DNA of 64,000 nt from an uncultured Candidatus Actinomarina sp. (GTDB lineage Bacteria; Actinomycetota; Acidimicrobiia; Actinomarinales; Actinomarinaceae): contig CACMQN010000007.1 in the NCBI GenBank assembly GCA_902615855.1, forward strand, positions 3,525 through 67,524. The letters run 5' to 3'. A program made the position numbers and the translations under genes. Below, one piece after another: positions 20,785-28,952 of the stretch (the stretch's first letter is position 1; each line of letters begins with the position of its first letter). The notes below the pieces were generated by a model. It saw only the letters and a list, made by a program, of their open reading frames with translations, made no database searches and had not been told where the DNA came from.

Positions 20785-21603
20785 TTAACTAGTACAAGAT
20801 GTTATATATTTTGTGAGATATTCCTTTTCATTTAAAGTCAAACCACCCAAAGTACGATAATGGTTATATGAACCACCATAATAAAGAACAAGTGCATCCA
20901 CTAAAAATTCTTCCCCTCCAAAAAAATTTCTAGCTTCTTGTCTGTAGTTGTTGTTTGTTTCAGTAGCACAGTTTCTTGTTGAGTATGAAAATGCATGCAA
21001 AGACTCATGTAATAAAACATCATAAGCAACATTTGCCTCAAACGCTCGATTTGAAATCCAAATTGAGAAACTCCATTCAGCATTTTTAGATCCATCTGAG
21101 CTTGTTCCTGGTTGGTCCCAGACACCATATGGACATCTTTCAATTAATAATTTACCGTATTGATGACAACCGTTAATAATTGATATGTTATTCGTATCAA
21201 TTATATCTAAGAGTAATTCAGGTAGACCCATCGATAATTGTTCTAATTTAGATTGATTCAGACCTTCAAAACCTGCATAACTAGAAAATGGTCCGATATA
21301 AGTTGTAGTCGTTGAAGAAGTGGTTGACGTTGTTGGAGCAGTGGTTGTAGTCGTTGATGAAGTGGTTGACGTTGTTGGAGCAGTGGTTGTAGTCGTTGAA
21401 GAAGTGGTTGACGTTGTTGGAGCAGTAGTTGTCGTGATAGTTGAATCATTGGTTATCATCGTATTTTCAATATTTTTTGCTTCATCTTTGTTAACAATAA
21501 TTTCTTCTTCAGTAGTAATAACATTTTCCTGGTTTGAATTAATTACAACTAATGAAATTGCTAACAATAACAATAAAAATGAATTTATATATCTGTTGAT
21601 CAT
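20785..21603 (-). CDS. Secreted Thr/Ser-rich protein with an HExxH zinc-metallopeptidase-like motif
   Basis: Signal peptide, three copies of 'APTTSTTSSTTTTT', a C-terminal domain with 'LLHESLHAF' (20995-21009), and several Cys. Confidence 0.6.
   Translation of the reverse strand: MINRYINSFLLLLLAISLVVINSNQENVITTEEEIIVNKDEAKNIENTMITNDSTITTTTAPTTSTTSSTTTTTAPTTSTTSSTTTTTAPTTSTTSSTTTTYIGPFSSYAGFEGLNQSKLEQLSMGLPELLLDIIDTNNISIINGCHQYGKLLIERCPYGVWDQPGTSSDGSKNAEWSFSIWISNRAFEANVAYDVLLHESLHAFSYSTRNCATETNNNYRQEARNFFGGEEFLVDALVLYYGGSYNHYRTLGGLTLNEKEYLTKYITSCTS
21301..21441 (-). repeat. 42-nt tandem coding repeat x3 (APTTSTTSSTTTTT)
   Basis: Near-identical nucleotide units are visible on the + strand (gtggttgacgttgttggagcagtggttgtagtcgttga...). 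Confidence 0.9.
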
Positions 21604-23060
21604 CTTTTTCTAACAAGCTTTATTAAAAGACCTAAAATCAAAACTGTTAAAAAATATCCAATCAAAGCTAAAGCAATAGTAAATGAAAAAGTACCCATAC
21701 TCAACAGTTCTTGTTGCATGTTTGCAAAATTGCTATCAGGGGAGATAATTAAAATCCTAATAAATAACCAAGTACCCAAAATGAAGCTTATCAATGGAAA
21801 AATTTTAAAGATACCTCTTGAATCATTAAGCGATTCAAACAACTCATTTCCGCCACCTGGTAATGATTTGAATAAGACGCCTTCTAAACACATTAAATAA
21901 CTTAGGGCTGATATTGCCAATAAGACACTTGATTCTTTTATAAAAGGTTGGGAAGTAAGATAGAAAAAACCAAAACCACCAAGGCTGAGAAATAGTGTTG
22001 AGTAAAATTTCGGTGATAGTTTGGCTGTATTTCTGTTACTTGATATGTAAGCAGAAGCAAAAAAACCAAAAATAAACCCAATAGGCATTTCAAAATAAAT
22101 AAAAGCCAAGGTTGATATCCCTGCAAAGAAGATAGCCTGTGGTGCCCACTTAAATTGTACTTTCTGTTTAAATACTTTGCTTTCTATAAAACCCTCTGTG
22201 CCCTCGTAGAGTAATGTCACTGCCAAAAGTCCAAAAATCGAAGCAATAAATATTGCCAAATTTTCCAGATCTAATATTAAATCTGCTCCTTCTTCAACAA
22301 ACCCAATCAAAAATGCAGTGACCAATAATACAAAAACAATTTTTAATAACTTAACTATTTTTCGTGAACTTTTTATACTTTTTTTACCTCTAAACCTTGG
22401 GATATTGGTTGTAGATAAAACTTTATTAAACCACTCTTGAATTAGAAGAACTAAATAAAATAAAATAATTATCCCAGTAGAAATTATTACACCAATACTG
22501 TTTTTTTCTTGATCATTAAAATCAATGTCCTCAAATAAAGGTATTGAAGTGATTAATCTATTTGTTATTTCTATATTTAGATAATCTATTTCCTCAACTG
22601 CAGGAGGTGGAAGGGTTGTTGTCGTTGTAGTTGTCGTTGTAGTTGTCGTAGAAGTTGTCGTAGAAGTTGTCGTTGGTGGAGGAATTATTGGTAGAGTTTT
22701 TTGATTAATGAATTCTTCTTCTACATAAGTCTTGCATTCATCAGCATTACAATCTGGGCCCGTATAATTCTCAATTTTGGTGATAAAAACGCTTACTGTA
22801 ACTTTTACATAATCGGGGTAACAACAAAGTTCAATCTCACCAGTTGATCCAGGCAGTTCATATTTTTCAATTTGATTGTCATGAGATATTTCAATCATGA
22901 TAAAATCATATCTTTCATATGCTACTGCCCATTTAATTGAAATATTTTCATCTTCTAATCTTGAGATATCAACCTCTATATTTTGTTGATCAAGAATTGG
23001 AATAAAAAAAGATGCATTAAAGAAAAGAAAAAAGGATAAAAAAATTAAAATTTTTTTCAT
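21600..23060 (-). CDS. Multi-pass membrane protein with an N-terminal extracellular domain and a poly-Thr linker; family unknown
   Basis: Signal peptide, a Cys-containing domain of ~125 aa, 'PPPTTTSTTTSTTTTTTTTTTTTLPPP' (22602-22682), then about 8 hydrophobic helices. Confidence 0.6.
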   Translation of the reverse strand: MKKILIFLSFFLFFNASFFIPILDQQNIEVDISRLEDENISIKWAVAYERYDFIMIEISHDNQIEKYELPGSTGEIELCCYPDYVKVTVSVFITKIENYTGPDCNADECKTYVEEEFINQKTLPIIPPPTTTSTTTSTTTTTTTTTTTTLPPPAVEEIDYLNIEITNRLITSIPLFEDIDFNDQEKNSIGVIISTGIIILFYLVLLIQEWFNKVLSTTNIPRFRGKKSIKSSRKIVKLLKIVFVLLVTAFLIGFVEEGADLILDLENLAIFIASIFGLLAVTLLYEGTEGFIESKVFKQKVQFKWAPQAIFFAGISTLAFIYFEMPIGFIFGFFASAYISSNRNTAKLSPKFYSTLFLSLGGFGFFYLTSQPFIKESSVLLAISALSYLMCLEGVLFKSLPGGGNELFESLNDSRGIFKIFPLISFILGTWLFIRILIISPDSNFANMQQELLSMGTFSFTIALALIGYFLTVLILGLLIKLVRKR

Positions 23061-23066
23061 AATAAA

Positions 23067-23687
23067 TTACTTCAAAATTTTTATTGCCTTATCAAATATT
23101 TTTTTTATATTATCAAGATACCATTCATCAGTATATTTTGACCATACTGGATAGTTTTCGTCATATCTTAACCACAAAAATGTAATTCCATTAAACATTT
23201 GAAAAATTTCATTTGCTAACTCTCTTGGATCTACATTCTTGTGATTCTTACATAAGTTATATAAAACATCATAAGGTTCATTTTGTATCCATTTTCCAGT
23301 AGATTGTATATCTCTTACTTGAAACCACGCAAAACGAATGGCATCTCCCAACTCAACACATTTCATTGCAATAACGTTTAGAAAGGTTTTTATAGCTTCT
23401 TCAGATATAGGGTCTGACTTCATAAAAATTTCAAAATCTGTTACAACATCCTTGAATCCTTCTTGAAATAAGGAACCATATATATCTAATTTATTCTCAG
23501 GGAAATGATTATATGCAGTTGCGGTTGAAACACCTGCATGTTTGGCAATCTCGGTAACAGTGATTTTTTCAGGCTGTAAAGGGGAATTATTGAATAATTC
23601 AACTGCACTCTTAAGCAGCTTTGAATGTATCTCATCGTAAGTTTTTTGAGCTCTTACTAACCTACCATCAACTTTTGTAACTTCCAT
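23067..23687 (-). CDS. TetR-family transcriptional regulator
   Basis: N-terminal HTH 'TVTEIAKHAGVSTATAYNHFP'; about 200 aa. Confidence 0.85.
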   Translation of the reverse strand: MEVTKVDGRLVRAQKTYDEIHSKLLKSAVELFNNSPLQPEKITVTEIAKHAGVSTATAYNHFPENKLDIYGSLFQEGFKDVVTDFEIFMKSDPISEEAIKTFLNVIAMKCVELGDAIRFAWFQVRDIQSTGKWIQNEPYDVLYNLCKNHKNVDPRELANEIFQMFNGITFLWLRYDENYPVWSKYTDEWYLDNIKKIFDKAIKILK

Positions 23688-23693
23688 ATTAAA

Positions 23694-26600
23694 TTAATTT
23701 ACACTTTCTATCTTTGATAAAATGCCTGATACAACAAGTCGTTGTCTAGCAGAATATTTTGGGTGACATGTAGTTAGTGTTATTCTGTCCTGCCCTCGAT
23801 TATAAAGAACGTAGTCATCATTAGGGCTCACAATTAGTATTTCATCAACAATGTAGAGATATTTATTTGAGCCAAAAGAAAGTCTTATTTCATCACCTAT
23901 CTCAACTTGGTCTAGCCTATTGAATGGAGCACCATAAGTTGTCCTATGGCCTGCAATGCCAACATTACCTCCAGAACCAGGAAGATTTGTCTGAATGTAA
24001 TGTCCAGGTCCAAACTGAAGATTATTTTCATCAGTACCAGAAACAATATATTGTCTTATGCTGATATTAGGGATCTCTAGAAGGCCGAAAAGTTTTGGCT
24101 CATATTGCCCAGAATTTAGGACATTATCTATTATTTCTAGTTCTCCAAAAAAATCAAAAACAGGATTATCTGATTGAATGATATTAAATGGATTTGAAGA
24201 CGTAAAGAATTCTGGTTTTTCTTGTGCAGGCTCTCCTAGATAAACTGTTTCTAAATAGTTTTGAGCATTTTCTTGGTATTCGTCAGAAAAATACATTTGC
24301 TGAGTTGTATATATACCAAAGCCAATTCCCGTCAATATTAGTAATGTTGCAAATGATGTAGAAATCTGTTTTATTCGCTTTCTTTCAAAAAATTTACGCT
24401 TAATATTCTTTGTCTGGTTTTTTTTAACTGTTTTAACTTGTAATTCTTTAGAGTCCAAAATATCTTCAGATGTATAAATAATTTGAAAATTATTAGAAAT
24501 TAACCCTAGACGATCTGCTAATATTTCTTTCGACATTACCTCATTCTTTTCCGCACTTATCTTTTTAATATTTTCTATTGCAACAAGTGTGTACTCAAGT
24601 TCATTATTAAGTTCTCTTATCTCAGATGAATAGCTCACAAAGCTTTTTCCATATGGTGCAAATTTGTTAATATCAATGTTGACTTGAACTTTTGAATCAA
24701 TCAGCTTTTCAATTTTTGTTTTTACTTTAAAAGCATTCTCATATATATCTTCCAAAGAGATGTCACTTTGAAGTAATTTTCTTTTCCTTGAACTTGTAAA
24801 TAAAACTAATCCAGCAGTCAAAAATACTAAACCGCTTATTATTGTGTAGTCAAAATTAATTCCCGTATCCGCAAGTTCAATTGAATCTTCTGTAAACCGG
24901 TACCTTACTCTGTAATTACCGTCTGTAAAAAATATGTCTTCTTCAAAATCTTCCCAAACAACCAAACTATTTTCGGTTAGTTCAGTGAAATCTTCATCAT
25001 CGTCACCATCGAAATCATCATCATTGTCTGTACCATCATCATTGCCCGTACCATCATCATTGTCTGTACCATCATCATTGTCTGTACCATCATCATTGCC
25101 CGTACCATCATCATTTTCTGTACCATCATCATTGTCTGTACCATCATCATTGTCTGTACCATCATCATTTTCTGTACCATCATCATTTTCTGTACCATCA
25201 TCATTGTCTGTACCATCATCATTGTCTTCATCAAGACCTGTCAAAGATGTTGTAGTTGTAATAACTGGAATCGTTGTAGTTGTCGTTGGGTCAATTATCA
25301 AATCATCATCTTGACAATCAACAGTGTTTTTAAATCTTCCAGTTACTTTTAGTTCATTTGTTTTGTCATCTCTTACTTTGAATTTAATCCTATATTTTGA
25401 ACCATCTGTTGCTCCAAATAATGTACTAATTGAAAAATATTGTCCTGAGCTTATGCTGTATTCATTTTTGCTAATCTTTGATCCATTTACCCAGATTCTT
25501 ACTATCAATTTCATTCCAACTGTAGATTGTCTATTGTCTACTGCAAAAGCATAATTAGCTGATGAACCAGTACATTGTCTATTATTTATGAAAAATGGGT
25601 CAAATATTTCTGGTGGCAAAGTTGTAGTTGTTGTAGTAGAAGTTGTAGTAGTTGTTGTAGTTGTAGTAGTTGTAGTAGTTGTTGTAGTAGAAGTTGTAGT
25701 AGTTGTTGTAGTTGTTGTAGTTGTTGTAGTTGTTGTACAAGAAACTGTATCACTTTCGGCAATGGCTTCAACAACCATATTTGTAAAGTTGTCGTCTGAA
25801 AAAGAGTCTGTAATTCTCCATGTAATAGTTGAACCCTCATTCACAGATTGTGTGAATTTAGAGTTATTTGTTGCACCACCTGATAAAGAAAAATTTGAAG
25901 CATCAGAATCAGAGTGAGTTGAGAATGTACCATCATCAATTTTGAACTCAATTTTGTAATATACAGTTACACTCTCATTATTTGTAATACTTAAAGTAGA
26001 TGTCTTTGCACCACTTGAACATGAACCAGATAAAGACTGAGAAACTGAAGAATCTGGATCACAATCTGCTGCTGATGAGGCAACCGGTGTTTCGGTTGTC
26101 ATGTTTGTAAAATCATTACTTGTAAGTGAGTCAGTAATTCTCCATGTAATAGTTGAACCATGCGCAACAGATTGTGTTATTGAGGAATTTGGTGTCCCGG
26201 ATGCAACAGTAACGTTGCTTCCGCTACTGTGCGTTTGATAAGATCCAGAATCAATTTTGTATTCAACTTTTACAAACGTGTTTCCACTTCCCTCATTGTT
26301 AGTAATTGTAAGTGTTGCTGTCGTAGAACCATTAGTACAACTACCAAAGGCAGTGGCTATGGTAACGTCTGGATCACAATCAACTTCAGAACTTTGAGTT
26401 ACACCTTCATAACTAGCTTCCGAAAAATCACCTGTTGTGAAACTATCTTTGAATTGCCAAGTTATTTTTTCACCATGAGCAACAGATTGTGTAAGCGTGC
26501 CACTATTACTAGAACTTACTGAGAAGTTGGTATTTTTATTTTGCCAATCACCATCGTCAATTTTGTATTGCACAAAGTAAAAAACCGTACTGCTTTCAGT

Positions 26601-28952
26601 GTTTTGTAATGTCAAAGTTGAAGTTACTGAACCACTTGTACAATCACCAAAAGACTGTGAAGCATTTGTACCAATATTACAATTTGCTGCAGATGATGAA
26701 ACTGGTGTTTCAGTAGTCATGTTTGTAAAATCATTACTCGTAAGTGAGTCAGTAATTCTCCATGTAATAGTTGAACCTTCAGCAACGGACTGAGTAATTG
26801 AGGTATTGGATGCCCCAGCTGAAACCGAAACGTTACTACCACTCCCATGTGTTTCGTAGGAGCCAGAGTCAATTTTGTATTCAACTTTTACAAAGGCCGT
26901 ATTGCTTCCTTCATTGTTTGTAATTGTTAAAGTTGATGTAGCTGCGTTACTACTACAACTTAAAGCTTGTGATATAGAAACATTTGGATCACAATCCACA
27001 GTTGAAGATGAAACTGGTGTTTCAGTAGTCATGTTTGTAAAATCATTACTCGTAAGTGAGTCAGTAATTCTCCATGTGATGGCTGAACCATCTGGAACTG
27101 ACTGAGTAATTGAGGTATTGGATGCCCCAGCTGAAACCGAAACGTTACTACCACTCCCATGTGTTTGGTAGGTGCCAGAGTCAATTTTGTATTCAACTTT
27201 TACAAAGGCCGTATTGCTTCCTTCATTGTTTGTAATTGTTAAAGTAGCGACTTGGGCACCACTAGAACAATTTCCAAATCCCGTAGAAATAGAAACTTCA
27301 GGATTACAATCAACAGTTCCAATCGTGACTGTAGTGTAAGCTCCAGACGAAGGATTAGATGTATCTGCTCTATATCTTATTTTTACTGTTTGACCATCTG
27401 CAGAAGCTGAAGAGGTTGTGAACTCTACGCTAGATCCTGCTGATATAGATTGGCCATCTGCAAGGTTAGTAGTCGTTGAAAAATCATTGTCACTCCAGTC
27501 AACATCAACAAACATTGTTGAACCACTTGCTGTTAGTGTCAATGAAGCAGTTGCAGCTCCACTGGAGCATGTGTTTATTTCAGCATTTGAATGCGATATT
27601 GAACCACCACAACCGCCACTTACACTTACAGATATATCAGTTGTACCCGATGAGGGCGTCCTTAGTGAGTGAGTTGTTAATTCTGCGTACCAACTTATGG
27701 TTACAGTCCCAGATGAGAAACCTACAGGAGTGGTAACAGTTGGACTTGCACCGGCACTTACTGTTGTACCAGTTGTTACATCGCCTGATTTGCCAACTCC
27801 ACTATATGTAACAACATAGTTTACATCAACATCGCTGTTTGAATTATCTAGAGTTACTTCGACTAATCTTTCTGAACCTGAGCATGAGCCTTCTGAGGCG
27901 GATGCAGTTGGAACAAACTCATCTCCCCCACTTAGACCAATTCCACAGCCTGCACCATCAGTATTGCTTGAGCTAGCAAAATCATCATTTGTCTCAGTTA
28001 ACGAGTTGGCTGATTCATCATATAACCAAAGATCTCCAGTATTATTTTCAAGAAAGTAAACATCTCCATTTCCCAGTGACATTGCAGCACCTGAGTTAGA
28101 ACCTATCCCACTACCAATATTGTTGTTAAGGACACTTAAAGTTATTGTTATTGCTTCAGAACCTGTCCCATGACCGGTATGTGAAGTTATCTTTGCACCC
28201 AGTAAATCATTAGCATTTGAATCATAACCAATAAAGTCATTCCCACTAAATGAACCATTTGCTCCATCATTTGATACCCAAGCAAAGTCTTTTGCTTTGT
28301 TGGAACCATTAGATCCCCCAAGTATTGTTGGAGTAATTACTGTATATGATCCATTACTATTTATTCTTATAACTTTTTGATTTCCGTTAAAAAAACCTTT
28401 TGATGTAAATACATATTTGTATGTTGTTCCAGATACTGTTGTTTCATAATTAGATGCAGCATTATTTTCACCGGTACCAAGATCAACAGAACTTATATGA
28501 TTTGCTGTTCCCACTCCAGATGAGTTGTAATCTAGCTTATAAAAGTAGAGATCATTATTGCTGTTATCTTTTTTCAAAATTGCATACATTGAACCATCGG
28601 TTTGAATGCTTAATGAGTTGACTTCATCAATATTGTTATGATCCCAAGAGTTAAAAGTCTCAATAACTGATGTAGAAAATACTCCAGAATCATTATTGAT
28701 TCCTCGATTGATGGTCAACGTATTTCCACTCCATGTACTTTGATAAAGATAAGTTCTTCCGTCAGAATCAATACAATCGAATTCACCAGATGCAATTGCA
28801 GGTTGTGGATCAATTATCTCAATTGTCACAAATACAAGTGAAAACACCATTAGAAAAGAAATAAATAAATTTAAAGTTTTCTTATTTAATATGAACGAAA
28901 TAAAGTTTTTAAAATAATTCATGTCATAACCTAAAGCGCCTAAAACTTTCAT
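23694..28952 (-). CDS. Giant repeat-rich cell-surface protein with an LAxTG sorting signal, fused in frame to a C-terminal class E-like sortase domain
   Basis: One uninterrupted 1752-codon ORF. Its parts in order: a signal anchor (aa ~25-55), Cys-bounded repeat modules of ~100 aa, poly-Thr, acidic NDDGT repeats, 'LADTG' + TM + 'RKRK', a ~140-aa charged linker, a second TM, then 'GNVGIAGHR...TLTTCHP...RQRLVV'. Confidence 0.8.
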   Translation of the reverse strand: MKVLGALGYDMNYFKNFISFILNKKTLNLFISFLMVFSLVFVTIEIIDPQPAIASGEFDCIDSDGRTYLYQSTWSGNTLTINRGINNDSGVFSTSVIETFNSWDHNNIDEVNSLSIQTDGSMYAILKKDNSNNDLYFYKLDYNSSGVGTANHISSVDLGTGENNAASNYETTVSGTTYKYVFTSKGFFNGNQKVIRINSNGSYTVITPTILGGSNGSNKAKDFAWVSNDGANGSFSGNDFIGYDSNANDLLGAKITSHTGHGTGSEAITITLSVLNNNIGSGIGSNSGAAMSLGNGDVYFLENNTGDLWLYDESANSLTETNDDFASSSNTDGAGCGIGLSGGDEFVPTASASEGSCSGSERLVEVTLDNSNSDVDVNYVVTYSGVGKSGDVTTGTTVSAGASPTVTTPVGFSSGTVTISWYAELTTHSLRTPSSGTTDISVSVSGGCGGSISHSNAEINTCSSGAATASLTLTASGSTMFVDVDWSDNDFSTTTNLADGQSISAGSSVEFTTSSASADGQTVKIRYRADTSNPSSGAYTTVTIGTVDCNPEVSISTGFGNCSSGAQVATLTITNNEGSNTAFVKVEYKIDSGTYQTHGSGSNVSVSAGASNTSITQSVPDGSAITWRITDSLTSNDFTNMTTETPVSSSTVDCDPNVSISQALSCSSNAATSTLTITNNEGSNTAFVKVEYKIDSGSYETHGSGSNVSVSAGASNTSITQSVAEGSTITWRITDSLTSNDFTNMTTETPVSSSAANCNIGTNASQSFGDCTSGSVTSTLTLQNTESSTVFYFVQYKIDDGDWQNKNTNFSVSSSNSGTLTQSVAHGEKITWQFKDSFTTGDFSEASYEGVTQSSEVDCDPDVTIATAFGSCTNGSTTATLTITNNEGSGNTFVKVEYKIDSGSYQTHSSGSNVTVASGTPNSSITQSVAHGSTITWRITDSLTSNDFTNMTTETPVASSAADCDPDSSVSQSLSGSCSSGAKTSTLSITNNESVTVYYKIEFKIDDGTFSTHSDSDASNFSLSGGATNNSKFTQSVNEGSTITWRITDSFSDDNFTNMVVEAIAESDTVSCTTTTTTTTTTTTTTTSTTTTTTTTTTTTTTTTSTTTTTTLPPEIFDPFFINNRQCTGSSANYAFAVDNRQSTVGMKLIVRIWVNGSKISKNEYSISSGQYFSISTLFGATDGSKYRIKFKVRDDKTNELKVTGRFKNTVDCQDDDLIIDPTTTTTIPVITTTTSLTGLDEDNDDGTDNDDGTENDDGTENDDGTDNDDGTDNDDGTENDDGTGNDDGTDNDDGTDNDDGTGNDDGTDNDDDFDGDDDEDFTELTENSLVVWEDFEEDIFFTDGNYRVRYRFTEDSIELADTGINFDYTIISGLVFLTAGLVLFTSSRKRKLLQSDISLEDIYENAFKVKTKIEKLIDSKVQVNIDINKFAPYGKSFVSYSSEIRELNNELEYTLVAIENIKKISAEKNEVMSKEILADRLGLISNNFQIIYTSEDILDSKELQVKTVKKNQTKNIKRKFFERKRIKQISTSFATLLILTGIGFGIYTTQQMYFSDEYQENAQNYLETVYLGEPAQEKPEFFTSSNPFNIIQSDNPVFDFFGELEIIDNVLNSGQYEPKLFGLLEIPNISIRQYIVSGTDENNLQFGPGHYIQTNLPGSGGNVGIAGHRTTYGAPFNRLDQVEIGDEIRLSFGSNKYLYIVDEILIVSPNDDYVLYNRGQDRITLTTCHPKYSARQRLVVSGILSKIESVN
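23697..24095 (-). other. Sortase catalytic domain within the giant ORF (aa ~1620-1752)
   Basis: Catalytic His in 'IAGHR' (codon 23946-23948), Cys in 'TLTTC' (23766-23768), Arg in 'RQRLVV' (23739-23741). Confidence 0.8.
24774..24875 (-). other. Cell-wall sorting signal inside the giant ORF: LADTG (24861-24875) + hydrophobic helix + RKRK
   Basis: 'ELADTGINFDYTIISGLVFLTAGLVLFTSSRKRKLL' (aa 1360-1393). LAxTG is the motif recognised by class E sortases. Confidence 0.75.
25017..25232 (-). repeat. 18-nt tandem coding repeat, about 12 copies, encoding (N-D-D-G-T-D/E/G)n
   Basis: The + strand reads accatcatcattgtctgt / ...gcccgt / ...ttctgt, reiterated (aa 1241-1312). Confidence 0.95.
25620..25736 (-). 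repeat. Poly-threonine coding tract (39 codons, T with two S)
   Basis: The + strand shows (gttgtagta/gttgttgta)n, aa 1073-1111. Confidence 0.95.
25737..27884 (-). repeat. Seven Cys-bounded ~100-105-aa modules; three (aa 549-654, 654-758, 859-964) are nearly identical at the DNA level
   Basis: The recurrent block is 'TLTITNNEGSNTAFVKVEYKIDSG.Y.THGSGSNVSVSAGASNTSITQSV..GS.ITWRITDSLTSNDFTNMTTETPV.SS..DCDP'. Long identical nucleotide runs occur about 310-315 nt apart. Confidence 0.9.

Follow-up and report, generated by a model that had tools for sequence, protein, structure and literature searches.

A sortase substrate and a class-E-like sortase encoded in a single reading frame in a clade of Candidatus Actinomarina

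The DNA analyzed here is a 64,000-nucleotide stretch of a Candidatus Actinomarina contig, hereafter named the window. On its reverse strand, a single open reading frame encodes, in this order, a signal peptide, a passenger of about 1300 aa, a sorting motif of the [LM]AxTG type, a membrane helix (TM1), a basic cluster, a cytoplasmic domain, a second helix (TM2), a tether and a sortase. A first-pass annotation, made from the letters alone, had reported a stop-free frame of 1752 codons with an N-terminal signal, a sorting signal, a second helix and a sortase. Translation, hydropathy and the Pfam profile PF04203 confirm this layout, and all coordinates given for the frame and its parts proved correct on re-reading. 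The features of the locus are as follows.

23694..28952 (-): whole fusion ORF, passenger, sorting signal, cytoplasmic domain and sortase; 1752 aa plus stop, ATG start
28791..28952 (-): signal peptide region, aa 1-54; basic n-region, hydrophobic core aa 29-47, AIA/SG site
27873..28790 (-): passenger head, aa 55-360; no recognisable family, conserved in L001 and P0138
25737..27872 (-): tandem modules of ~100 aa each, aa ~361-1072; a single unit run by blastp against the full protein
25621..25737 (-): poly-threonine stalk, aa ~1073-1111; seen in the translation and by Tandem Repeats Finder (period 9/12/51)
25016..25227 (-): acidic (D-N-D-D-G-T)n tandem repeat, period 18 nt, 11.8 copies
24876..24965 (-): conserved pre-signal segment, aa 1330-1359, VVWEDFEEDIFFTDGNYRVRYRFTEDSIE; aligned in fused proteins and split clade B substrates
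24861..24875 (-): LADTG motif, aa 1360-1364, codons ctt gcg gat acg gga; predicted scissile bond Thr1363-Gly1364
24792..24854 (-): TM1, aa 1367-1387, hydrophobic part of the sorting signal, out to in
24777..24788 (-): RKRK positive stop-transfer cluster, aa 1389-1392; R/K-rich in the alignment
24366..24776 (-): cytoplasmic domain, aa 1393-1529, 137 aa; predicted alpha/beta fold, then basic stretch
24303..24365 (-): TM2, aa 1530-1550, in to out, anchoring the sortase domain in the membrane
24081..24302 (-): extracellular tether from TM2 to the catalytic core, aa 1551-1624; acidic (2 K/R, 13 D/E), with some disorder in the model
23697..24080 (-): sortase catalytic domain, aa 1625-1752; PF04203, invariant residues, PDB class E matches
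23997-23999, 23946-23948, 23766-23768 and 23739-23741 (-): key sortase residues Tyr1652, His1669, Cys1729 and Arg1738, respectively
23067..23687 (-): TetR-like gene, 206 aa, 6 nt downstream of the fusion; Pfam TetR_N E=2.8e-6
21600..23060 (-): 486-aa membrane protein, a conserved neighbour by synteny

Judged by hydropathy and charge only, without a dedicated predictor, the N-terminus carries the export signal expected of a sortase substrate, and the motif A-x-A/SGEFxC is common to the homologous N-termini of L001, L006 and L094. Behind the head, six copies of the tandem module were detected between aa 462 and 1072, with 38-81% identity to the reference unit. Short-read assemblies break at the acidic repeat, where all six scaffolds L093-L098 have a 100-N scaffold gap. 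Pfam scans of three passenger segments, including the head region, returned only sub-threshold noise at E<=1. Since no domain of the passenger scores above threshold, its identity as an adhesin is inferred and stays a guess.

The sorting signal proposed in the first-pass annotation is present in full, with the pentapeptide, TM1 and the basic cluster in the right order. A 19-residue Kyte-Doolittle scan (mean >= 1.6) detected exactly three hydrophobic segments in the whole protein, i.e. the signal core (aa 29-47), TM1 and TM2. The 18 aa before TM1 hold 0 K/R and 5 D/E, and the 15 aa after it 4 K/R; around TM2, 8 K/R lie in the 17 aa before the helix and none after it. The positive-inside rule thus predicts the out-in-out topology that had been proposed, which puts both LADTG and the catalytic domain on the outer side. 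Substrates usually have their sorting signal at the extreme C-terminus, with a tail of ~30-40 aa. This does not hold for the fusion, in which the motif is followed by 388 aa (388-398 aa in fused homologues, versus 26-30 aa in split relatives). The window holds a single sorting signal and a single sortase motif, and other sortases or LAxTG substrates elsewhere in the genome are not excluded.

The C-terminal domain passed the sortase profile check, PF04203 matching aa 1625-1743 (E=1.2e-29, 103.1 bits versus a cutoff of 26.6), and TIGR01076 sortase_fam scored 78.9 bits (cutoff 39.35). The catalytic residues had been correctly read, with IAGHR starting at aa 1666 (His1669), TLTTC at aa 1725 (Cys1729), and Arg1738; all three are invariant in alignments of 13 and 81 sequences. 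An AlphaFold2 model (mean pLDDT 67 overall, mostly 80-92 in the catalytic core) has the eight-stranded beta-barrel fold of sortases, and Foldseek matched it to many sortase structures, with E ~1e-11 to 1e-13 and a target-normalised TM-score up to 0.87.

Regarding sortase classes, the best NCBIfam model was that of class E, NF033747, with 109.1 bits over profile positions 67-209 only, below its cutoff of 160. The best PDB matches by sequence and by fold are among class E enzymes (5uus, 5go5, 5cuw, 9iok). Tyr1652 of GPGHY, invariant in the homologues, aligns with GHY of the class E structures and with GHF of CpSrtD (F92). This conserved Tyr of the beta3/beta4 loop (Tyr229 in SrtE1) favours Ala at P3 in class E (PMC5148588). 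The motif is also of the kind cognate to class E, LADTG being the sole sorting signal at the locus, and homologues having LAATG, LAETG, LANTG or MADTG. The match to class GN (TIGR03784) was weak, with 55.8 bits versus a cutoff of 158.25; with a score so far below cutoff, the domain is no member of that class. We consider the domain as class-E-like, an assignment by sequence that stays below the NCBIfam cutoff, and neither LAxTG cleavage nor transfer to the wall has been shown.

Between RKRK and TM2, the first-pass annotation had seen a heptad-like linker of ~140 aa. The length was about right (137 aa), but the heptad coiled coil was not upheld: AlphaFold2 gives a compact alpha/beta domain (pLDDT 78), and on the strength of this model we describe the linker rather as a folded domain in the cytoplasm. 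Mean identity of the domain across homologues is 42%. Foldseek of its model against the PDB gave no match below E=1, and a Pfam scan gave none either. The frame from RKRK to TM2 has 0 stops in 137 codons at 27% GC, versus 11 and 23 stops in the other frames, and among 20000 composition shuffles of the segment none was stop-free. The argument that a trivially lost stop codon would not leave such an open frame also withstands a count limited to the 80 codons up to M1473, which are stop-free with P ~3.5e-4.

The same fused architecture was found in 14/14 species-representative Candidatus Actinomarina genomes (L007-L020), which are mostly single-cell genomes, including complete ORFs of 3012, 2584 and 2877 aa. 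Six independent metagenome scaffolds from different samples (L093-L098) encode a C-terminal part of 413 aa that is 100% identical to that of the window, and 3 more are also fused, at ~51% identity. The succession [LM]AxTG, helix, basic cluster, linker, helix and sortase is kept in frame by dozens of metagenome proteins, with identity down to 33-40%. With the catalytic domain as query against 1.84 billion representative proteins, the best 150 matches included one very long protein, P0138, which is a complete fusion of 1471 aa and of Actinomarinales type. Three long high-GC proteins inspected among these best 150 matches have cytoplasmic extensions and are no fusions. Gene calls of 423, 360 and 588 aa were considered as split variants and ruled out: they are due to 100-N scaffold gaps or to frameshifts in the acidic repeat, and the motif remains in the sortase frame. 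The possibility had been raised that homologues would be split rather than fused; those of the window clade (clade A) are fused. Every refuting condition set out in the first-pass annotation, to the extent that it can be checked in silico, spoke for its interpretation.

Split forms do exist in two sister groups, clades B and C (loci L006, L087-L092 and L021-L029), where a giant substrate with its own sorting signal is directly followed by a separate two-helix sortase. In clade B, the substrate ends with PIA[AK]TG, a helix and RRRRD, then a conserved stop, TAA (TAATAA in two loci); the sortase starts at a TTG 6 nt after the stop, in the same frame, and has its own helix, KKK, linker, TM2 and catalytic domain. 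At the end of the giant clade C substrates, [FY]AxTG or IPFTG precedes a helix and a basic tail. The clade C sortase, of 545-570 aa, begins with a membrane helix and has an extra RecA_C domain in its cytoplasmic part; the two genes abut or overlap by a few bases. Both groups share with the fusion the locus (thrC ... rho), a homologous catalytic domain (33-37% identity), a homologous cytoplasmic domain and first helix, and a substrate with an xAxTG motif and a pre-signal segment homologous to that of the fusion (YLTDGNYVVQYVYTED in clade B). They differ from it by having two genes, and two helices instead of one between motif and linker. The stand-alone sortase of these sister lineages has the architecture that cleavage of the fusion between Thr and Gly would leave.

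In a neighbour-joining tree of the catalytic domain, the topology was ((fused A, B), C) relative to the outgroup, with bootstrap support of 48/60 for A, 51/60 for A+B and 60/60 for A+B+C. Clade B was initially a candidate for an orthologous lineage preceding the fusion. This was dropped, as genomes with a B pair also have an A-type fusion right behind it, so that A and B are paralogous tandem modules. L006 and L089 are examples of such a split pair beside a fusion in the same genome, and a second sortase able to act in trans is thus present in those genomes. Because one helix separates motif and linker in the fused form, and two in the split form, the difference between them amounts to a deletion of ~40 codons, and not to a point change. 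The most likely origin, which remains inferred, is an in-frame deletion between an adjacent substrate gene and two-helix sortase gene; it would have taken out one of two adjacent membrane helices together with the intervening stop and start codons.

Could a lost stop, a frameshift or a chimeric assembly have merged two neighbour genes in this window only? In clade B, a single stop lies between the adjacent, in-frame genes of substrate and sortase, and an error of one base could thus in principle give the appearance of a fusion. Assemblies of the fusion gene do break, though at the acidic repeat, upstream of the junction. However, the junction is identical in the six independent scaffolds, none of which has a stop or frameshift there, and the 14 species-representative genomes, most of them from single cells, are fused without a stop or frameshift at the junction. 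The ~40-codon deletion is not the trace of a point error, and the linker frame is free of stops when the two others have 11 and 23. We consider an artefact as effectively refuted. Substrate and sortase in a single chain are a genuine and evolutionarily fixed arrangement of one clade of Candidatus Actinomarina, a group of tiny marine actinobacteria, and join a giant substrate to a dedicated class-E-type sortase.

Substrate and sortase being made as one polypeptide, the protein probably cuts and anchors itself, an inference made without any demonstration of cleavage. Sec would export the passenger, TM1 and RKRK would halt transfer, and TM2 would restart export, so that the catalytic domain would lie outside beside its own LADTG, ~6 residues above TM1. 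Cys1729 would then attack the Thr1363-Gly1364 bond, in the same molecule or in a neighbour, and the passenger would be held as a thioester before being passed to the amine of a peptidoglycan precursor. The predicted membrane remnant, which may process further precursors, is a two-helix hairpin sortase starting at Gly1364, with the architecture of the stand-alone sortases in the sister lineages. In the absence of cleavage, acyl-enzyme or wall-linkage data, both the occurrence of cleavage and its cis or trans mode are inferred. The stricter version, an obligate self-sorting module in which each precursor is cut intramolecularly, with effectively a single turnover, and hands its own passenger to lipid II, is only a tentative proposal, which we hold to be possible rather than probable.

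The conservation of the motif bears on whether self-processing occurs at all. In the 81-sequence alignment, 60 rows have [LM]AxTG in the sortase chain (LAATG 31, LAETG 11, MADTG 7, LANTG 6, LADTG 5), and 1 more has LAATC. At the DNA level, Leu, Ala, Thr and Gly are each encoded by four codons, and x varies among D, E, A and N. As every synonymous codon occurs and changes are confined to x, the sorting motif is under purifying selection, and so are the catalytic residues. A real fusion might still do no self-processing, LADTG-TM1 being a mere membrane helix and the passenger staying on a sortase that acts on other proteins or is inactive. Direct evidence of cleavage is absent, two helices would anchor the protein stably even uncleaved, and in the AlphaFold2 model of the C-terminal 413 aa LADTG is not in the active site, although the low confidence of the motif segment (pLDDT ~30) means that this placement says nothing for or against docking. 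We nevertheless find this unlikely. Lineages that share only 33-60% identity retain [LM]AxTG, with complete turnover of its synonymous codons, and neither the class E Tyr nor the catalytic His, Cys and Arg vary. The motif also has its homologues in the sorting signals at the C-termini of the split relatives, and the window has no other sorting signal. Even less probable, in our view, is that one ORF yields two products, the full-length protein being substrate only, and the active sortase being made from an internal start in the linker, such as M1473, as a conventional single-helix class E enzyme with a cytoplasmic extension. M1473 (ATG 24534-24536) does have a GAGG just upstream, as had been noted, and one subclade has a Met directly after RKRKL. 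Moreover, some class E sortases are known to extend N-terminally into the cytoplasm by 100-200 aa (PMC5148588). However, M1473 is replaced by L or T in homologues, and no start codon is conserved in the linker, ATG, GTG or TTG occurring in no more than ~40% of the 17 clade A sequences at any column. Across the ORF, a scan for promoter and terminator consensus gave counts at chance level as judged by shuffles (28 promoter-like sites, versus 28.9 expected), and the shorter gene calls trace to gaps and frameshifts upstream, not to stops at the junction. Self-processing of the full-length chain, inferred as it is, remains the reading that we retain as likely.

Sortases and their substrates are, in textbooks, separate enzyme and client genes. 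With the class E sortases and their LAxTG substrates (SrtE1 and chaplins of Streptomyces coelicolor, SrtF of Corynebacterium diphtheriae, SrtE of Thermobifida fusca), the fusion shares the fold, the His/Cys/Arg triad and a motif of the LAxTG type. Like SrtE1, it has a cytoplasmic segment ahead of the membrane anchor, and its GPGHY contains the class E Tyr, a position that is Phe in CpSrtD, a class D enzyme (PMC5148588). Unlike these systems, the fusion is one polypeptide with an internal sorting signal, followed by 388 aa versus ~30, and its enzyme would keep two membrane helices after the predicted cleavage.

Other systems resemble it in part. The class GN "marine sortase" (TIGR03784) is reportedly paired, in Haft's TIGRFAM descriptions, with a single adjacent target. 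It is likewise a private enzyme for a single adjacent substrate; class GN pairs are separate genes, found in Proteobacteria, with a different motif. Engineered SrtA-LPXTG-target fusions for tag-free purification self-cleave between T and G, intra- or intermolecularly. Enzyme and recognition motif are there also in one chain, but these constructs are artificial, soluble, of class A and calcium-triggered, with the enzyme N-terminal to the motif and no membrane topology or wall acceptor. In Hedgehog, the N-terminal domain is passed on to an acceptor by a C-terminal domain that forms a thioester. Hedgehog and type V autotransporters combine passenger and release or attachment machinery in one precursor, as the fusion does; folds and chemistry are unrelated, and we use them as an analogy only, homology being neither tested nor implied.

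A natural substrate-sortase fusion was not found in the literature, including that on Actinomarina; most papers in subscription journals were out of scope, and this absence is no proof. Sortases are not mentioned in the Actinomarinales genome paper, nor fusions in a 2021 review on sortases. A conserved natural substrate-sortase precursor would be a new way of organising cell-wall anchoring, and a natural experiment in which a fixed 1:1 stoichiometry, an enforced proximity and a possible cis-cleavage can be set against the classical trans mechanism, with split and fused versions in sister lineages, and side by side in some genomes. Making an enzyme and an abundant substrate at 1:1 looks wasteful, which is a point against a self-processing fusion. 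Were obligate self-sorting true, it would be a natural autocatalytic wall-anchoring device in a monoderm, logically akin to the autoprocessing of Hedgehog and autotransporters, evolved by a bacterium that ranks among the most streamlined free-living ones, and it could be transplanted as a self-anchoring or self-ligating tag. A compact class E module recognising its own LAxTG could interest protein engineering. The finding is notable, not revolutionary: adjacent and functionally linked genes often fuse in evolution, and the chemistry is expected to be ordinary sortase chemistry.

The fusion also bears on the host, an abundant uncultured marine actinobacterium whose envelope is essentially unknown (PMC7771536). 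For this reason, it gives a first concrete statement on the cell surface, the picture being that of a giant protein, probably linked to the wall, that bears a poly-Thr stalk and an acidic repeat.

Downstream of the fusion, the 486-aa membrane protein has a partial match, below cutoff, to the "FGLLP motif-containing membrane protein" family (NCBIfam NF041501, E=2e-11). In all modules examined, of A-type as well as B-type, the gene behind the sortase is the TetR-like one.

The minus-strand ORF 23694..28952 contains 1752 open codons, and a 19-residue hydropathy scan of the whole protein gave three hydrophobic segments only. No recognisable domain was found in the passenger.

Sorting signal and hydrophobic segments (from the scan) of the fusion ORF
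aa 29-47, minus strand: signal peptide core, followed by AIA|SG
aa 1360-1364, nt 24875-24861, minus strand: LADTG (codons ctt gcg gat acg gga)
aa 1367-1385, minus strand: TM1, the helix after LADTG, itself followed by RKRK
aa 1530-1548, minus strand: TM2, the helix anchoring the sortase domain

The sortase domain matches the Pfam Sortase model over aa 1625-1743 (E=1.2e-29), and His1669, Cys1729 and Arg1738, which the first-pass annotation had placed at these positions as catalytic residues, are invariant in alignments of 13 and 81 sequences. From RKRK to TM2 the linker, at 27% GC, has no stop in 137 in-frame codons, against 11 and 23 in the other two frames, and 0 of 20000 composition shuffles were stop-free. 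ORF, motif, helices, catalytic residues and linker frame having been checked in this way, every coordinate proposed earlier was found to be correct.

The fusion is real and not an artefact: neither a stop nor a frameshift was found at the junction in six scaffolds with an identical C-terminus or in 14 species genomes. Searching for homologues of aa 1340-1752 gave dozens of proteins, 40-74% identical over the full query, and in each of them [LM]AxTG, a helix, a basic cluster, a linker, a second helix and a sortase lie in a single chain. The C-terminal 413 aa are 100% identical to the window in six scaffolds assembled from different samples, Tara among them; a 100-N gap upstream of this C-terminus, in a (DNDDGT)n repeat, explains why their gene calls are only 423 aa long. 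The species scan, with one genome per GTDB species, gave 14 Ca. Actinomarina/OCS155 genomes with a whole-query match, mostly single-cell assemblies. The frame from motif to sortase was free of stops in 14/14, and complete ORFs were present in three of them (3012, 2584 and 2877 aa). Three further metagenome scaffolds, ~51% identical, are open over >1950 aa, and a complete fused protein of 1471 aa (P0138) occurs in the representative protein library. Shorter gene calls were considered as split variants and rejected, as frameshifts or gaps within the acidic region account for them and the junction is intact.

A sortase might also be translated separately from M1473, the first internal Met after RKRK. 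This residue is not kept among homologues, no linker column had ATG, GTG or TTG in more than ~40% of sequences when 17 fused genes were aligned by codon, and promoter-like matches were no commoner than in shuffled sequence. Thus a separate sortase product has no support, as far as sequence can tell, and a single polypeptide remains the preferred reading.

Charges flanking the two helices
18 aa before TM1: K/R 0, D/E 5
15 aa after TM1: K/R 4, D/E 3
17 aa before TM2: K/R 8, D/E 1
15 aa after TM2: K/R 0, D/E 3

These charges cleanly obey the positive-inside rule, and thus place the passenger outside, the linker inside and the sortase outside. The out-in-out topology suggested earlier agrees with them, on charge counts alone. 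LADTG lies ~6 residues above TM1, and the catalytic core hangs from an acidic tether of 74 aa, partly disordered in the model. We propose that the passenger would be exported by Sec, that TM1 and RKRK would stop transfer, and that TM2 would restart export. Cys1729 would then attack Thr1363-Gly1364 in an adjacent molecule or in cis, the two helices of one molecule being neighbours. A peptidoglycan precursor amine would resolve the thioester, leaving in the membrane a hairpin sortase starting at Gly1364. As the N-terminal Gly that leaves would be kept close by, religation may compete for as long as no acceptor is at hand, a speculation from general sortase chemistry.

Among the 81 aligned rows, the motif column has LAATG (31), LAETG (11), MADTG (7), LANTG (6), LADTG (5) or LAATC (1). 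Among 19 DNA sequences, four codons occur for Leu, along with ATG where Met replaces it; the full set of four appears for each of Ala, Thr and Gly, and at the x position the amino acid itself varies. Judged from codons, such a pattern is that expected for a motif read by a sortase, and unlike that of a relic. Relative to the window, identity averages 70% for the catalytic domain, 42% for the cytoplasmic domain and 22% for the basic stretch before TM2. The linker had been described as heptad-like; instead, it is predicted to be a domain with a compact alpha/beta fold (pLDDT 78) rather than a heptad spacer, and no relatives were found in PDB or Pfam.

Class E sortase is the top NCBIfam model, at 109 bits, under the curated cutoff of 160. 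The best PDB sequence matches include the class E enzymes C. diphtheriae SrtF (5uus), S. avermitilis SrtE (5go5) and S. coelicolor SrtE1 (5cuw), and class D CpSrtD (4d70) likewise scores high. Tyr1652 of GPGHY aligns with the class E tyrosine, proposed to select Ala at P3 (Kattke et al., PMC5148588), whereas CpSrtD has Phe. By profile, triad, fold and this Tyr, the C-terminal part is a sortase, below the class E cutoff. Class E enzymes can bear functionally needed cytoplasmic N-terminal extensions (PMC5148588), a precedent for the linker. As a substrate, the protein has what is required except that its sorting signal does not lie at the C-terminus; wall attachment is inferred. From sequence alone, the fusion is inferred to behave as a class E sortase joined to an LAxTG substrate. 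The 64-kb window has one sortase and one sorting signal, both in the fusion. Public annotation calls the fused proteins simply 'class E sortase'. No natural substrate-sortase fusion was found in the literature searched, whose coverage was incomplete, so that a prior description is possible; neither the Actinomarinales genome paper nor a sortase review mentions one.

Three Actinomarinales module types share one syntenic order: hom, thrC, giant protein to sortase, TetR-like gene, membrane protein and, further on, rho. Clade A, window included, is fused. In clade B, a ~1690-aa substrate ends in ...YLTDGNYVVQYVYTEDELPIA[AK]TG, a helix, RRRRD and TAA (TAATAA at two loci), and a ~390-aa sortase starts at TTG 6 nt after this stop, in the same frame, with its own N-terminal helix and then KKK. 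Clade C substrates exceed 3150 aa and close with [FY]AxTG or IPFTG, then a helix, then a basic tail; the sortase that follows (545-570 aa) begins MQYFF-helix-RVRRNRQ. The stand-alone enzymes of the order are thus two-helix hairpins, precisely the fragment that the inferred cleavage between Thr and Gly would leave of the fusion. In most of the high-GC Acidimicrobiia sortases sampled, the catalytic domain is preceded by a long cytoplasmic extension and a helix, and further helices usually lie C-terminal to it; a helix at the very N-terminus and an L[AP]xTG motif were absent from all of them. The neighbour-joining tree of catalytic domains is ((A, B), C), outgroup (bootstrap A 48/60, A+B 51/60, A+B+C 60/60), and the fused state is therefore derived. 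An A-type fusion lies directly downstream of a B pair in the same genomes (2772 aa in L006, with LAATG at residue 2376), so A and B are tandem paralogues. We infer that the simplest route to fusion starts from a B-like arrangement, in which an in-frame deletion of ~40 codons between the two similar helices would take out the stop, the start and one of the helices.

Two such loci, L006:164-16192 (GCA_902510205.1) and L089:889-11355 (GCA_902511615.1), carry two modules in tandem downstream of thrC: the first is a split substrate and sortase with a TetR-like gene, the second an A-type fused giant with a TetR-like gene; thus both versions coexist in one cell. Clade C sortases (L021:9470-11098, L022-L029, P0142) contain a RecA C-terminal domain (PF21096; aa 86-140, E=1.3e-16, 60.9 bits, cutoff 27) in the cytoplasmic part that separates the N-terminal from the second helix. 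Such a module within a sortase is odd and unexplained, and the window protein lacks it. At L005:9617-11248, on a long-read, pilon-polished contig, an in-frame TAG divides a clade C sortase into a helix protein of 123 aa and a sortase of 415 aa. The ORF is single, at 545-570 aa, in nine other clade C loci, and the split probably reflects misassembly or a pseudogene. In related high-GC Acidimicrobiia sortases (L030, L036, L037, L064, L080, P0161, P0200, P0272), the N-terminal cytoplasmic extension spans 200-500 aa and one to three extra hydrophobic segments lie past the catalytic domain, unlike textbook class E enzymes. For P0070, a 382-aa match from the homology search, the precomputed Pfam entries include the N-terminal domain of D-Ala-D-Ala ligase (PF01820) alongside a sortase domain; either another fusion or a chimeric contig might account for this.

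Passenger repeats and neighbouring genes in the window
25016-25227, minus strand: (DNDDGT)n repeat, 18-nt tandem unit, 11.8 copies
25621-25737, minus strand: poly-threonine run, ~39 aa, TTTTTTTTTTSTTTT..., imperfect 9/12/51-nt repeat
23067-23687: weak TetR-family gene, 206 aa, starting 6 nt past the fusion ORF
21600-23060: membrane protein, 486 aa, after the TetR-like gene, partial match to the 'FGLLP motif-containing membrane protein' model

The 100-N gap falls exactly on the 25016-25227 repeat in 6/6 otherwise identical metagenome scaffolds, so the number of repeat copies seen in the window may be unreliable. Our impression, without binding data, is that (DNDDGT)n resembles calcium-binding acidic repeats. 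The poly-threonine run may, speculatively, be an O-glycosylated spacer; in all homologues, T-rich stalks of a similar kind lie between modules. The TetR-like gene and the membrane protein are conserved sortase neighbours in A-type loci and may be part of the system. In two-module loci, a TetR-like gene follows each module.
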